A program made the position numbers and the translations under genes. Below, piece by piece: positions 164 to 5,431 of a stretch of 64,000 nt of DNA; position 1 is the stretch's first letter, and each line of letters begins with the position of its first letter. The notes under the pieces were generated by a model. That model was not told the origin of the DNA. It worked only from the letters and a program-made list of their open reading frames with translations, and made no database searches. This DNA is from a virus (Duplodnaviria > Caudoviricetes): the IMG/VR virus record IMGVR_UViG_3300025740_000004, positions 28,375 to 92,374 of that record; one strand, 5' to 3'.

Positions 164-622
164 TTATTTAGTTTGTTCAAGTTGTTGATCAAAAATTTGA
201 AGGAACTCATCTTGATTGGAAAAGTTTGAATTTAACACTTGATTCAAAACATTCAAAGATTTTAAGTTATGCTCAAATTCTGGTTTAGAGACGTTTTGAG
301 AGTGATCAAATTCTGAAGGAGACTTTCTAGGTAAAATTGATTTAGATCGATTACAAGGCTTCTTAGGCAGATTGTAGGTAACAGTTATTAGTCTCTTTAA
401 TGCATTAGCTTTTTCTTTAGAAAGATTAACTTTTATTATTTCAGTTTTAATTAAATTTTGTTCCTTTAGTGATAAAAACTCTGAAAATGAAAAATTTGAA
501 TAAAAATATCTATTACTGAAAGCATAATTAAAATGATGATAGTTATAGTTACATCCAACTTTTACTGAAATAATTTTATTAATATCAATTTGTCTTAAGA
601 CGAAAACATAATAATCATTTAT
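164..622 (-). CDS. Unannotated GIY-YIG-like ORF with non-canonical start (possibly ATA) or 5'-decayed
   Basis: Stop-free frame 637..164 (157 codons); YYVFVL..VKVG and EIIKVNLSKEKANALKRLI..YN resemble GIY-YIG motifs; AAGGA lies ~9 nt before ATA at 622. Confidence 0.55.
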   Translation of the reverse strand: MNDYYVFVLRQIDINKIISVKVGCNYNYHHFNYAFSNRYFYSNFSFSEFLSLKEQNLIKTEIIKVNLSKEKANALKRLITVTYNLPKKPCNRSKSILPRKSPSEFDHSQNVSKPEFEHNLKSLNVLNQVLNSNFSNQDEFLQIFDQQLEQTK

Positions 623-639
623 AGTGAAAAATTCCTTTT

Positions 640-1230
640 AAGTAATTATTCAACTTAAAAATTAACGAAAATGAAGAACTGGAAATCTGACTGTAAGGAA
701 GATTTTTAGTTCTTCGCGCAGCTTGATCAAAATTGTAGAAATATTTTTAAATAAAATTTTGATCAAAGAATCTATTTCCAGATTAATTTATTTTGTCTGA
801 ATCGACTGAAAGGAGATTCATGCGAGTCAACGAGCATTGTAGAAAATATTTAAATTTAAAAGTATTAAACTAATTTATTCCAAAATGATGATAATTTAAA
901 GTTATTATTCAATCTCCTGCGGAGAGAATTTTATTTTTCCACTGCGCTACAAAATAAAATTCATTTTAAACATTTCTTTAATTTAAATTCTTTTCTACAA
1001 AACATTTAAATTTATTTGTATTAAGAGAAAGTTTTATTTAAAGTAATTATTTCAATTTGTATATGTTTTGATCAATATCGCTCGATGCATCGCGATCTAA
1101 AGAGTTTGATTTAATTTTTGATTGAATAATTTTTTAGAAATTTATTTTTAGATACAGTTGCCCCTATTGTCCCCAAAATTTTCTTCAATTTTAATGTAAA
1201 GAAATTAGGAAAAATAGTAACATGCCCCTA
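640..1230. other. Non-coding hairpin/iteron-like cluster, candidate replication origin
   Basis: Inverted repeats at 673-715, 723-766, 798-820, 913-925 and 926-962; repeats AAGT(A/T)ATTATT(T)CAA at ~640, ~899 and ~1041; TGCCCCTA at ~1159 and ~1223. Confidence 0.45.
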
Positions 1231-1289: not shown

Positions 1290-1500
1290 GAATTGCAACT
1301 AACGACATTCATCGAAAATTGATTCTTGTTGTGATACTCAGTTTCTTTAGTAACTTTATCTTCAATTTTTTAGTATGAAGCTTATTTCTTACCAGAGGTT
1401 CTTTTCCACGTTTTTGTTTCAGAAGTGGCGCCTCAGAGTATCACAACCATTCGATCCTTGCAGATCAAGAGATTCATTAAATTTCTTAACTTACTCTTTC
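1290..1500 (-). ncRNA. Candidate structured ncRNA
   Basis: Perfect 12-bp stem 1328-1339/1436-1447 enclosing two hairpin arms; directly downstream of stacked early-type and late promoters; no ORF follows on this strand. Confidence 0.45.
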
Positions 1501-1505
1501 AAATT

Positions 1506-1563
1506 TATTTATAGTATCTTCCAATCTTTAATCTTAGTTGTCAAGTATTTTTTAAATTTAATT
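1506..1563 (-). promoter_or_regulatory. Phage sigma70-type promoter overlapping T4 late box TATAAATA
   Basis: Reverse complement reads AATTAAATTTAAAAAATAC-TTGACA-actaagATTAAAgattg-GAAGAT-ac-TATAAATA. Confidence 0.7.
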
Positions 1564-2064
1564 TCAAACATATGAAAAATTTTCTTTTTTATTGATCCAT
1601 CTATGTAAAGTTGATTTTGGAATGTTTAGTTCTTTTGCAGCAATTCTTAAACTTTCGTAAATATTTCCACAAATTTTTACCATTTTACTTTTATGATTTC
1701 TTTTTCCAGACAAATTTAAAGCATTTTTGTAGTTAGGATTATTTTCACCAGAGTTATATTTTGAATTTTCTTCTCTAAGTTTTTCATATTGTTTTGGTGT
1801 AATTTTTTGTAGATTGTCTTTTTTAGAAAATGTCATTAAATGATATGCTAGAAATAAGTATTTTTCATTTTTGTAATGTTTATGTAAAAGATGGTGACAA
1901 ATATAATGTTCTTTTGCTGTTAATAAAACTAGATTTTCTTTAGAATTATTCCCACCCATGCATTTTGGAATGATATGATGCTTTTCAAAATAACCAAGTT
2001 TTCTAGATCTATTTTTTAATTTAGCTGATTTAATTATTTCGTTATATGCTTTCAAGTGATCCAT
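1564..2064 (-). CDS. HNH homing endonuclease with C-terminal HTH/NUMOD-like DNA-binding region
   Basis: EKHHIIPKCMGG..NLVLLTAKEHYICH motif; C-terminal YESLRIAAKELNIPKSTLHRW. Confidence 0.9.
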   Translation of the reverse strand: MDHLKAYNEIIKSAKLKNRSRKLGYFEKHHIIPKCMGGNNSKENLVLLTAKEHYICHHLLHKHYKNEKYLFLAYHLMTFSKKDNLQKITPKQYEKLREENSKYNSGENNPNYKNALNLSGKRNHKSKMVKICGNIYESLRIAAKELNIPKSTLHRWINKKENFSYV

Positions 2065-2177: not shown

Positions 2178-3938
2178 ATGTACATAGAATTTGAATATAT
2201 CATCGTCAAGAACTTTTTATCTTATGGGAATTCAGAAACAAAATTTAATTTTCAAACAGGATTATCTTTAGTTACTGCTGAAAATGGTTTAGGAAAAAGT
2301 ACAATTTTACTAGATGCGATTTCTTATTGTCTTTATGGAAAACCTTATAGACAAGTTAAGTTAAATGAATTGATCAATAGAAAGAATAAGAAAAATCTTT
2401 ATACAGAACTTTCTTTTAAAATTGATGGAAAAGATTCTTATAAAATTGTTAGAACACTTGCTCCACAAAAGTTATTCATATATAAAAATGGTTCTGATAA
2501 AGCTTTAGAATCAGCTTCTTCAAAACTATTAGATCAAGAAGAAATTACAAAGCTTCTGGGAATTGATTATGATTTGTTTAAACTTATCATAGCACTTGCA
2601 CCAAACACTAATCGTCCTTTCCTTTCTCTAGGCTTACCACAAAAGAGAGAGGTTATGGAATCGATTTTCTCTATCAAGGTCTTCGGAGAAATGTTGAAGA
2701 AAGCTAGAGCAAAATTAAATTCAATCAAAACTGACAAAACAATTTATCAAAGTTCTATAAAAAATGTAGAATCATTAATAATAACTTTAAAGAAACAAAT
2801 TGATGATACTGAAAATTCTATGAAAGACTTTGATGAAAAGAAGATTGAAGAAATTAATATTTTACAAACTAAGAAAGATGATATTCAAAATCAAATTTCA
2901 CAGATTAATTCTTCTTTAGAAACTTTAATAAAAGAGTTTTCCAAAATTTCTTTAGATGAACATGATTACTCCAAAGAACAGATTGAAGCTTCTGGAAATA
3001 TTAAGATTGAAGAAAACACTATTAAAGAAAAGAAATCTCAAATTAAATTTTTAGAAAAAGGTGGAAAGTGTCCTCTATGCTCTCATGATATTACAGAAGA
3101 ACATAAGACAGAAGAAATTCAAAAACTTAATAACATCATAACAAAATCAGAAACAAAAATTGAAACAAATAAGAAAAAACTTGTTAAGATAAATGAAAAA
3201 CAATCTGAACAAAGAAGAGTTAAAAAGATTTATGATGATTCTAAAAATGATATTCAAATAGCTAAAATAAAACTTTCAAATTTAGAAAAAACTTCTTTAG
3301 ACTTAGATAAACAAATTGAAAATGTAAAATCTAGAGAATTGAAAATAGATCTTACAAATATTAAAGAAGAATATTCAAATAAAATTGAAACATATAAAGA
3401 AGATGTTAAAAAACTTACTACTTTAAATAATGATCAAAAGAATTATGAAATTGTTTCTAAGATGCTTTCAGAAGATGGTATTAAATCTTTCTTCTTCAGA
3501 ATGCTCGTTCCAATTTTAAATAATAAGATTAATGAATATTTAAATATTTTCGATCTTCCTGTTGCAATTTCTTTTGATGAAACAATGCAAGAAACAATTT
3601 CAATCATAGGCTCTTCTGATAAAGATGTTTCCTATAATAGTTTTTCTGAAGGTGAAAAGAAAAGAATAGATATTGCAATTTTACTTTCTTTCATAAGCAC
3701 TACAAAAACAATCTCAAACTGGAATTGTAATCTTTTAACATTCGATGAAATTTTAGATAGTGCTACAGATCTAAATGGATTGGAAAAAATGTTATCATCT
3801 ATAAAACAACTAACTTTAAATGATAATCAACTATGCTCTTATGTAATTTCCCATAGAGATAGTTTCCAAGACATCTATTCGAGAATCATTAAAATCAAAA
3901 AGACAAACGGATTCTCAAAAATCGAGATTGATAAATAA
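2178..3938 (+). CDS. 46: gp46 Rad50/SbcC-like recombination ATPase
   Basis: KNFLSYGN, Walker A NGLGKST, zinc hook CPLC, signature FSEGEK, Walker B/D-loop FDEILDS, ISH. Confidence 0.95.
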   Translation: MYIEFEYIIVKNFLSYGNSETKFNFQTGLSLVTAENGLGKSTILLDAISYCLYGKPYRQVKLNELINRKNKKNLYTELSFKIDGKDSYKIVRTLAPQKLFIYKNGSDKALESASSKLLDQEEITKLLGIDYDLFKLIIALAPNTNRPFLSLGLPQKREVMESIFSIKVFGEMLKKARAKLNSIKTDKTIYQSSIKNVESLIITLKKQIDDTENSMKDFDEKKIEEINILQTKKDDIQNQISQINSSLETLIKEFSKISLDEHDYSKEQIEASGNIKIEENTIKEKKSQIKFLEKGGKCPLCSHDITEEHKTEEIQKLNNIITKSETKIETNKKKLVKINEKQSEQRRVKKIYDDSKNDIQIAKIKLSNLEKTSLDLDKQIENVKSRELKIDLTNIKEEYSNKIETYKEDVKKLTTLNNDQKNYEIVSKMLSEDGIKSFFFRMLVPILNNKINEYLNIFDLPVAISFDETMQETISIIGSSDKDVSYNSFSEGEKKRIDIAILLSFISTTKTISNWNCNLLTFDEILDSATDLNGLEKMLSSIKQLTLNDNQLCSYVISHRDSFQDIYSRIIKIKKTNGFSKIEIDK

Positions 3939-4393: not shown

Positions 4394-5431
4394 ATGAATG
4401 TTGCTATATTTAACGATCTTCATTTTGGTATTAAAAGAGGTTCTGAAATTTTTCTACAATCTCAATTAAAGTTTATTAGGAATCAATTTATACCAGAATT
4501 AATTGAAAGAAAAATTGATACTATAATTATTCCAGGTGATTTTTTTGATAATAGAATTGCGTTAGATAATAAAATTTTAACACATATTTTAGATCTTTTT
4601 GATAATGAATTTAAAAACTTTAATATTCATATTCTTGTAGGAAATCATGATTCATATTTAAAAAGTTCTATTCATATTAATTCTTTAAGAGTATTTGAAT
4701 TTTATAAGAATGTAAAAATCTATGAAAAAAATGAATCTATAACTTTAGGAAATAGAAAAATCTTTATGTGTCCTTGGATTACTGATAATAAAGTTTTCTT
4801 AGAAGAATTAGAAACTTTAGAAAATCATGATGTTTGTTTTGGACATTTTAACTTTTCAAATTTTCTAATGCATAAAGATCAAGAATCAGATCATGGACTT
4901 TCTCCAGAACTTTTCTACAAAAAATTTAAGAAAACAATCTCAGGACACTTTCATACAAGATCTTCTAAAAAGGTTGGAGAGTCTGAAATCATATATCCAG
5001 GAAATCCATTTCATTTTACTAGAAGCGATATAGATGATGAACGAGGATATTCTATACTAAACTTAGATACCCTTGATTTAGAATTTATAGAAAATAGAGA
5101 ATCTATAAAGTTTGTAAAGTATTATTATCCACAACAATTAGAAGAAAAAGATATTCGAAATAATCATGTAGATATATATGTAAAGTTAGATCAAAATCTA
5201 AACGAACAAGAAGTAGATGCTTATTTCGAAAGGCTTGAGAAATTTGAACCAGCATTTCCTTTGAATAAGAAGACCATAAATATGTTAAATGGTGATTCTC
5301 CTGTAGAAATGTCTGCTACTTCAGGTAGAGAATTAATTGAACAATATGTATTACAGCAGTCTATTGAGAATAAATCAGATATTTTAAAACTTTTATTTGA
5401 ACTCCATGATGATTGTAAGAACGCTTTTTGA
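4394..5431 (+). CDS. 47: gp47 Mre11/SbcD-like nuclease
   Basis: DLHFG, GDFFDNR, GNHD and SGHFH metallophosphoesterase motifs. Confidence 0.95.
   Translation: MNVAIFNDLHFGIKRGSEIFLQSQLKFIRNQFIPELIERKIDTIIIPGDFFDNRIALDNKILTHILDLFDNEFKNFNIHILVGNHDSYLKSSIHINSLRVFEFYKNVKIYEKNESITLGNRKIFMCPWITDNKVFLEELETLENHDVCFGHFNFSNFLMHKDQESDHGLSPELFYKKFKKTISGHFHTRSSKKVGESEIIYPGNPFHFTRSDIDDERGYSILNLDTLDLEFIENRESIKFVKYYYPQQLEEKDIRNNHVDIYVKLDQNLNEQEVDAYFERLEKFEPAFPLNKKTINMLNGDSPVEMSATSGRELIEQYVLQQSIENKSDILKLLFELHDDCKNAF

Follow-up and report, generated by a model that had tools for sequence, protein, structure and literature searches.

The closest described systems are origins and primers at which a transcript is retained on its template. 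T4 oriF, or ori(uvsY), consists of a promoter followed by a downstream unwinding element, and a persistent R-loop formed there primes the leading strand (PMC3016281). Only a MotA-dependent middle promoter and the A+T-rich unwinding element are needed at oriF, oriE combines an early promoter with iterons, and the active T4 origins lie at strand switches with skew shifts (PMC3016281). How R-loop priming is chosen and regulated at T4-type origins is an open question (PMC3016281). In plasmid ColE1, the fold of the primer RNA II decides on hybrid formation hundreds of nucleotides later (PMC11012335). At mitochondrial CSB II, G-clusters or G-quadruplexes of the non-template strand are reported to trap the RNA as a primer (PMC3488243, PMC4176368).

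Here, a folded RNA is described from the gap between uvsY and gene 46 of an uncultured phage. The locus is like T4 oriF in lying 5' of uvsY where transcription strand and skew both switch, with a promoter directed towards uvsY, and like oriE in having an early-type promoter with short repeats nearby. It differs from the T4 origins in carrying a covarying folded RNA of 120 nt and G-runs, and the site is a candidate origin. To our knowledge, neither a covarying folded RNA nor G-runs are known for T4 origins. ColE1 RNA II is resembled in that a promoter-proximal folded domain is followed by hundreds of nucleotides leading to a putative hybrid site. There is, however, no homology to RNA II, neither an RNA I-like antisense gene nor Rom was identified, and the replicon is a phage and not a plasmid. 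The mitochondrial LSP-CSB II system is alike in its non-template G-clusters downstream of a promoter in A/T-rich DNA, and one of the two clades described below (clade B) has a canonical G3 x 4 motif. It is unlike in its polymerase and in the system as a whole; moreover, the G-runs of clade A are limited to GGGG x 3 over 68 nt, and a quadruplex or R-loop at the present locus is putative. A folded RNA together with G-clusters at a uvsY-side strand switch is a concrete, mutable element that may bear on R-loop priming.

The folded RNA lies at a strand switch beside uvsY

The window takes up the right-hand 64 kb of a virus contig from IMG/VR that is 92 kb long and has a completeness estimate of 37%, and all positions given are those of the window. 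The phage is very AT-rich (G+C ~25-28%; A+T ~75% genome-wide) and is, on its sequence, an uncultured, distant T4-like myovirus. Gene 46 (2178-3938, plus strand) encodes a protein with 31% identity to cyanophage and enterobacterial gp46; outside the HNH gene no sequence similarity to T4 was found. The gene at the left edge is uvsY (phrog_231 at 1e-12; PF11056 at 34.3 bits against a cut-off of 22.8). It starts at 144, alternatively at 210 by ORF call, and runs off the left edge of the window.

Between uvsY and gene 46 the coding strand switches, and the folded RNA is placed in this gap. Leftward of it the called genes (from ~2.9 kb of the contig) are all on the minus strand, and rightward the genes of the next 35 kb are all on the plus strand. 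The global minima of the cumulative skews bracket the RNA site, that of GC at 132 and that of AT at 2078. A location beside uvsY and a strand switch with a compositional shift, which mark T4-type origins, were both found here.

No tRNA or tmRNA was detected by ARAGORN in the 64-kb window. The minus strand of 638-1563 has no start-codon frame of at least 45 aa, and none of the frames crossing the fold is conserved between clades A and B. A hidden protein gene was considered and rejected: the 66-aa plus-strand ORF at 1375-1575 and the 54-aa ORF of clade B member L009 share nothing, and the substitutions are pairwise and not codon-wise.

Architecture of the fold

The preliminary description of this stretch had drawn a perfect 12-bp helix closing two arms, that is, a three-way junction. 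Folding returned the helix and both arms exactly as drawn. For 1325-1450 of the minus strand, the MFE and centroid structures are both the three-way junction, with a free energy of -30.6 kcal/mol and z = -4.8; the longer segment 1290-1505 of that strand has z = -2.9. Single-sequence folding recovered the junction in six of the seven family members, with z from -2.6 to -4.8. The fold begins ~60 nt into the transcript, and the junction occupies ~120 nt with junction strands of 1-3, 0 and 9-10 nt. In DNA as A/T-rich as this, a perfect 12-bp inverted repeat within 150 nt is nothing unusual (10 seen against 6.5 expected per window), so the helix alone proves nothing; it is the covariation that exceeds chance. 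The coordinates of the features are collected in Table 1.

Table 1. Features of the RNA locus (window positions; distances with a plus sign are from the predicted transcription start).
Feature	Position	Strand	Details or basis
mobD-like HNH homing endonuclease gene	1564-2064	minus	166-aa protein, HNH motif and C-terminal HTH only
Gene 47	4394-5431		
Early sigma70-type family promoter	1516..1564	minus	UP-like AAATTAAATTT block; -35 TTGACA (1544-1539); 17-nt spacer; -10 GAAGAT (1521-1516)
Late-promoter-like box TATAAATA	1513-1506	minus	overlaps early start site
5'-terminal hairpin of transcript	1467..1500	minus	RNAalifold on clade A; without double-sided covariation
Hairpin P0	1453..1466	minus	GAUC/GAUC, loop UGCAAG; compensatory U-A to C-G in L006 and L034
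Core three-way junction	1328..1447	minus	folding, model R1, alignment A6, covariation, per-clade RNAalifold
P1 closing helix, 12 bp	1447-1436 / 1339-1328	minus	
Arm 1 (P2a and P2b, A-rich 3' bulge)	1434-1395	minus	
Arm 2 (P3a, 8/6 internal loop, P3b)	1394-1348	minus	
Junction strand UAAAGAAAC	1349-1341	minus	
Hairpin P4	1288..1327	minus	abuts P1 3' strand; outer AAGAAU/AUUCUU, inner CGAU/GUCG
Three GGGG runs, RNA-sense strand	1228-1225, 1174-1171, 1164-1161	minus	~+281, ~+335, ~+345 (to +348)
Rest of ORF-free gap	638..1160		A/T-rich tracts; TTGTAGAAA in both orientations; TTGATCAAA repeats; GATC-rich palindromes; hairpins with GACTG(A/T)AAGGA loops

The unpaired core is near-invariant across the clades. 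It is made up of CCUCU, AAUAAG and AUAAA (arm 2 internal loop), UAAAGAAA (junction) and YUCUG (loop 1). Neither the junction strands nor the pairs nearest the junction vary, and the outer part of P1 does. Such a sequence-conserved core implies a specific partner, be it a protein, a ligand or a tertiary fold.

Outside the junction, clade B has a different 5'-terminal hairpin in the equivalent position. Its counterpart of P0 is CAAAUC/GGUUUG with the loop UGAAAAU, and its counterpart of P4 is AAGAAAUGU/ACGUUUCUU. The inner pair of P4 changes from U-G to A-U in L006 and L034. These two clade A relatives break the outer UCGA and UGCAA pairings that had been proposed earlier, and the local hairpins P0 and P4 covary instead. 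The size of ~200 nt first given for the RNA is probably an underestimate, since both conservation and G-runs reach ~+350 without a visible terminator. Inspection by eye for loop-loop kissing, for an anticodon-like loop, for a kink-turn or UAA/GAN motif and for alternative folds of the terminator/antiterminator type gave nothing that is kept in both clades.

Homologues and covariation

A search of IMG/VR based on gp46 yielded two contig sets with the common order uvsY (minus), a gap of ~900 nt, HNH (minus) and gene 46 (plus). The gp46 of the clade A relative L006 is 98% identical to that of the window, and those of clade B (L007-L011) are 61% identical. A pattern scan of JGI metagenomes gave one new clade A member, L034, and two duplicates. 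The family consists of seven distinct homologous sequences from two clades of uncultured T4-like phages, with one copy of the RNA per genome.

L006 is 90% identical to the window over 609-2200. Within the 12-bp helix it has double changes from G-C to A-U and from U-A to C-G, along with a change from A-U to G-U. Outside that helix, a pair of the upstream hairpin has changed on both sides, and in arm 2 a G-U pair has become A-U. Two P1 pairs are found in three states, being G-C/U-A in the window, A-U/C-G in L006 and U-A/G-C in L034. Clade B keeps the architecture although little of the sequence can be recognised: the closing helix has 10 bp, arm 1 has two helices of 3-4 bp each with a 7-nt A-rich bulge, and arm 2 has helices of 6 bp and 5 bp separated by an 8/6 internal loop. 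In L007 the outer half of P1 is replaced, in L011 P2b is replaced, and in L034 one P2b pair is changed. We take the covariation events within the clades to be independent.

A covariance model, R1, was built from six sequences. Members score 111-142 bits and everything else scores at most 24 bits (~1.4 Mb of other phage loci). In alignment A6, in which the seven distinct rows were fitted to R1, 97.4% of the pair cells are paired and 19 of the 28 pairs show double-sided change. The compensatory changes in homologous regions by which the preliminary description had proposed to judge the RNA are present. The covariation score of A6 is 0.78; column shuffles gave 0.29, with 0/500 reaching 0.78, and slid partners gave at most 0.25. 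As A6 leans towards the model, plain MAFFT alignments of each clade were also run through RNAalifold. Each clade alone gave the identical junction, with six and seven double-sided pairs.

The earlier assignment to the minus strand had relied on a G-U pair. This argument holds in the window and extends to the homologues, where only the minus strand accommodates the eight G-U cells; one junction-adjacent A-C cell of clade B would fit the plus strand. L009 and L011 are 94% identical over 305 nt of the RNA region, against 61.5% at the third codon positions of gene 46, which indicates strong purifying selection on the RNA region. These results make it very probable that the stretch encodes a genuine structured RNA.

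Searches for further members were carried out in several ways. An exact-helix pattern found nothing. A core pattern in IMG/VR matched L031, which was rejected as a coding false positive, and the other matches were known contigs. A loose pattern gave at least 114 chance matches, of which R1 confirmed none. No member was found in GTDB genomes, locus searches based on UvsY and HNH gave no new member, and R1 found nothing on the gene 46 relatives at 39-46% identity (L012-L025). HNH homologues P0003-P0015 are 53-80% identical, and their contigs probably carry further RNA members.

Comparison with known RNA families

At gathering thresholds, Rfam 15 gave no match in the whole window, and none in the five related loci that were also searched. 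With the cut-off relaxed to E = 5, the only matches on 550-1620 were chance-level miRNA/snoRNA ones, none of them on 1325-1450. The Rfam search that had been suggested at the outset and ARAGORN both agree with the first reading that this is not a tRNA, tmRNA or group I intron. A group I intron with an HNH ORF is also rejected on the lack of flanking exons (the divergent gene 46 promoter is upstream of HNH) as well as of an Rfam match. HEARO RNAs are associated with IscB proteins of 400-500 aa that have RuvC and HNH. A HEARO/IscB omega-RNA was rejected, as the HNH protein of the present locus is too unlike IscB (Table 1) and there is no Rfam match. The 6S-like decoy of the preliminary description is not supported, the shape being wrong.

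The phi29 pRNA, 5S rRNA and the TPP riboswitch are three-way junctions, ~120 nt long, in which a helix of the 5' and 3' ends closes two arms of two parts each, and all three are represented by Rfam models. The RNA is like them only in gross topology and in its ~120-nt size. Junction strand lengths and conserved nucleotides differ, there is no THI-box and no Rfam match, and membership of the 5S, TPP and pRNA families is thereby ruled out. A phi29-type packaging RNA was further rejected because the complementarity between loops that pRNA rings require is, for the loops of arm 1 and arm 2, not kept in both clades and the genome is T4-like.

With the orphan phage RNAs (T4 rnaC/rnaD, cyanophage manA/wcaG, GOLLD and ROOL) it shares being phage-encoded, covarying, non-coding and of unassigned function; for rnaC/rnaD the likeness is by description only. 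It differs from them in lying outside a tRNA cluster and in being much smaller than GOLLD or ROOL. The models of Rfam include manA, wcaG, GOLLD and ROOL. By these comparisons, the predicted RNA is a new, previously uncatalogued family, so far seen in two clades of uncultured T4-like phages.

Promoter and late-promoter-like box

The sigma70-type family promoter that had been reported to fire leftward into ORF-free sequence is present, has family copies and has an equivalent in clade B. Transcription is predicted to start near 1509 and to run leftward. Four more matches to the promoter block 1511-1563 occur in the 92-kb genome, and an additional copy, in inverted orientation, is the promoter of gene 46. 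The promoter belongs to a genuine six-member phage family; every copy is oriented as its genes run, and the spacer AAATTAAAGATTG is conserved among them. The 58-nt inverted repeat that flanks the HNH gene amounts to two divergent promoters, that of the RNA and that of gene 46. Clade B has TTGACA-17-TATGAT at the same distance to the fold as in the window.

A perfect late box stacked on this promoter had also been reported, and the RNA had been suggested to be made throughout infection. The TATAAATA box is indeed there. It occurs 15 times in the window against 18 +/- 4 expected, and it is invariant in clade A and missing at the equivalent place in clade B; it is therefore weak evidence, and the notion of an RNA made throughout infection loses its footing. 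About 6 of the 15 copies in the window stand 15-35 nt before gene starts.

Sequence downstream of the fold

No terminator-like site follows the fold on the minus strand in either clade. Weak collinear similarity between clades A and B extends over ~570 nt from the promoter, to ~972. The remainder of the ORF-free gap, 82-96% identical in L006, belongs to the conserved non-coding block of the RNA.

CCCC is rare on the plus strand, with only 23 occurrences in the 92-kb genome, and three of these, at 1161, 1171 and 1225, are the G-runs of the RNA-sense strand. Clade B has GGG at ~+279, and the only canonical G-quadruplex motif of each of its loci is at ~+326 to +344 (G3-N1-G3-N5-G3-N1-G3). Among the features that the clades share downstream, the G-runs stand out most. 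Their distances from the start are similar in both clades; in clade A they are three GGGG over 68 nt, with no canonical quadruplex. RNAalifold can fold the clade B G-tract as an ordinary G-U-rich hairpin. An A/T-rich stretch at 1150-1100 follows the G-runs, and since the genome has ~75% A+T, no distinct unwinding element stands out.

Four GRACCAT sites occur within 260 nt in clade B, against 1.3 expected per whole 9.7-kb locus. The iteron-like repeats of both RNA-bearing clades are short and weak. For a plus-strand (antisense) promoter 3' of the junction, only 9-of-12 matches were seen in both clades, at chance frequency, and no conserved antisense promoter was found in either clade.

A candidate origin transcript

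An origin primer RNA was among the roles first suggested for this RNA. The context strengthens the idea, which is plausible though unproven: the position beside uvsY and at the strand switch, the promoter type, the skew, the G-runs at fixed distances, the GRACCAT cluster of clade B and the iterons of relatives all fit. We put forward, as the leading but tentative reading, quite possible if short of probable, that the folded RNA makes up the 5' domain of a transcript, either an origin or a uvsY-leader transcript, entering a uvsY-side replication origin.

In such a pathway, the sigma70-like, host-type early promoter (1544-1516) would fire leftward, and ~60 nt into the transcript the RNA would fold as the junction. 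RNA polymerase would continue past the fold, because no terminator follows, and at ~+280 and at +330 to +345 would cross the rare G-clusters on the non-template strand. There, an R-loop or hybrid quadruplex could hold the G-rich RNA on the C-rich template, and the RNA so held would prime leftward DNA synthesis. The folded junction, like the 5' structure of RNA II, would prevent the 5' RNA from pairing with the template, and it may offer a handle to a protein or antisense RNA that decides on primer formation. We know of no T4-type origin with a priming logic like that of ColE1 or mitochondria.

Several observations speak against an origin transcript. The R-loop at T4 oriF is independent of specific sequences (PMC3016281), so that nothing at oriF calls for a folded RNA. 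The strand switch and the skew minima are confounded with the direction of transcription. The three G-runs of clade A do not make up a canonical quadruplex, and the tract of clade B can fold into the competing hairpin. The repeats of the RNA-bearing clades are weak as iterons, and an antisense promoter is not conserved. Relatives without the RNA still have iteron gaps, which means that the RNA is not a general part of such origins. The family itself amounts to only seven distinct sequences in two clades.

Alternative explanations

A conserved unpaired core with a covarying closing helix is usual in RNAs that bind a protein or ligand. The compact fold described here, with its conserved unpaired core and freely covarying closing helix, could accordingly be that of a free-standing, trans-acting phage ncRNA. 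The transcript would be processed or would end after the conserved block, and in early infection the junction would bind a protein or RNA, for instance to act as decoy, sponge or scaffold. In keeping with such an RNA are the strong promoter of its own, the 5'-terminal hairpin, purifying selection far above that on the synonymous sites of gene 46, and the unrelated RNA of ~320 nt in the equivalent slot of L012 and L014. We consider it possible but unlikely. Neither clade has an intrinsic terminator on the minus strand, conservation and G-runs extend to ~+350, and there is one copy per genome. Moreover, no target or partner was identified, and on inspection loop-loop or anti-RBS complementarity is not conserved between the clades.

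The fold may instead be a cis-acting leader of an early leftward uvsY operon, acting in the manner of a riboswitch, by put-like antitermination, or as a processing or stability element. It lies ~60 nt after the promoter, uvsY is on the same strand without an intervening terminator, and the conservation is aptamer-like, the junction being fixed and outer P1 variable. A leader of this kind is nevertheless improbable. The first ORF is ~700 nt away (622 in the window; ~690 nt in L009), and repeat arrays and other possible promoters come before it. An expression platform, be it a terminator or an RBS-sequestering helix, with a regulated ORF directly downstream, as expected of a riboswitch or leader, was not found; alternatives that pair the P1 3' strand to strands of P4 are, on inspection, not kept in L007 or L034. 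Only one of the at least six family promoters carries the fold, and no riboswitch or leader of Rfam matches even at E = 5.

The preliminary description had also named the upstream HNH gene as a possible partner. The RNA could be a 3' UTR stabiliser of the HNH gene, its co-mobile cargo, or a region shaped by cleavage and repair. All seven members lie directly after the HNH stop codon, distant relatives with a gap of ~350 nt have neither HNH nor RNA, and the gene is kept at the site in both clades, at 50% identity. We give a link of this kind very little credence, for the RNA's own promoter stands between the HNH stop codon and the fold, and the 166-aa protein is without the RuvC and bridge helix of the RNA-guided IscB, with no HEARO or group I match. 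A general partnership is not supported by the 79 IMG/VR HNH loci outside the lineage, beside which R1 gave nothing convincing, only two marginal matches (E = 0.02-0.04).

Inverted repeats are common in origin regions and G-T wobbles are tolerated in DNA hairpins, and a displaced non-template strand would have the sense of the RNA; a structure at the DNA level (a cruciform or folded displaced single strand) is nonetheless highly improbable, given the conserved promoter at a fixed upstream distance in both clades, the large conserved internal loops, 7-nt bulge and wobbles that make a poor cruciform, and the restriction of the wobble pairs to one strand.

The equivalent gap in distant relatives

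Distant relatives, with gp46 39-43% identical, are without the HNH gene and without the RNA. In their gap between uvsY and gene 46, which is ~350 nt long, (TA)n tracts precede arrays of direct repeats (iterons), 3-5 per array and specific to each phage. In L012 and L014 the gap contains an unrelated, G+C-richer folded RNA of ~320 nt with 14 double-sided pairs between the two sequences. The RNA family, together with this unrelated structured RNA in the equivalent slot of other lineages, suggests that the uvsY-gene 46 gap of T4-like phages is a recurrent home of functional RNAs missed by annotation pipelines.

To return to the candidate origin transcript, it can be extended to the proposal that T4-like phages of this lineage run an RNA-controlled origin. 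The junction would govern whether the G-clusters 280-345 nt downstream trap a primer as an R-loop or hybrid quadruplex, and the arrangement may recur with unrelated folds, as in L012 and L014. This wider proposal is rather unlikely. If the origin reading is true, the locus is a new variant of promoter-primed origins; if it is false, the RNA joins the orphan RNAs of phages, its signal being unusually clean. G-tracts are seen in the gaps of relatives as well: in L014 the ~320-nt RNA is followed by a G5-N3-G5 tract, and the gap of L017 has two GGGGGG runs.

A structured RNA of a different kind in the slot upstream of gene 46

In two of the more distant gene 46 relatives, L012 and L014, the slot upstream of gene 46 is filled by an RNA which is unrelated to that of the window and has no match in Rfam. 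Folding of the two sequences with RNAalifold gave 14 double-sided compensatory pairs, in an alignment limited to these two sequences. In L014 the RNA is followed by a GGGGG-N3-GGGGG tract. In six other relatives (L015, L016, L019, L021, L022, L023) a (TA)n-rich tract and then a direct-repeat array of 3-5 copies, with its own unit in each relative, lie between the uvsY-like ORF and gene 46. These arrays have the look of a classic iteron origin or operator array.

Features in and around the gap between uvsY and gene 46
Feature	Position	Strand	Remarks
Structured RNA, ~320 nt, G+C-richer	L012 3061-3400; L014 3030-3430	minus	RNAalifold
Two hairpins with near-identical GACTG(T/A)AAGGA loops, then terminator-like hairpin	window 673-715, 798-820, 913-937	plus	
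17-codon ORF	window 820-873		in plus-strand hairpin group, between hairpins and terminator-like site
Stop-free frame, 157 codons	window 164-637	minus	without usual start
mobD-like HNH gene	window 1564-2064; L009 3393-3866		
Hairpin directly upstream of uvsY	L009 ~2590-2620	minus	L007 vs L009 comparison
L021 array, 26-bp unit x5	gap, uvsY-like ORF to gene 46		
L016 array, CTTAAGGACC x5	gap, uvsY-like ORF to gene 46		
L019 array, TAACCTAG units	gap, uvsY-like ORF to gene 46		

Additional elements within the gap

The terminator-like hairpin on the plus strand, TCTCC-TGC-GGAGA followed by a T-run, is the sole site of its type within positions 1-2300 of the window. The ribosome-binding site of the 17-codon ORF, AAAGGAG, falls inside the second of the two similar hairpin loops. 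The hairpins and the ORF may together constitute a separate small transcript running rightward within the gap.

The far (uvsY) end of the gap in clade B, a group of related uncultured phages, holds further conserved predicted structures. Comparison of L007 with L009 revealed two double changes in the hairpin next to uvsY that keep the pairing (AAAUGG/CCAUUU versus AAACAG/CUGUUU), and a GUCC-UUCG-GGAC tetraloop hairpin adjoins it.

Genes flanking the gap

The stop-free frame between the gap and uvsY carries ATA at codon 622-620. In contig L034, which is 93% identical, this codon is ATG, and the counterpart of the frame (L034 1298-1756) is an intact ORF of 152 aa. Since the counterpart is missing in clade B and L006 diverges at this place, the frame looks like a recent insertion. 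No match was found in Pfam or PHROG, and assignment as a GIY-YIG protein is thus unsupported.

The mobD-like HNH gene, whose product has a helix-turn-helix at its C-terminal end, occupies the identical site in both clades, with an amino-acid identity of 50% as against 61% for gp46. Such stability at one site is unusual among homing endonucleases of the free-standing kind.

To the left of the window, in the structural-gene region of the whole contig (C1:12630-21955), ORFs of 569, 167, 517 and 296/297 aa appear twice, in tandem; the doubled series would be either a tandem duplication of ~4.7 kb or an assembly artefact.
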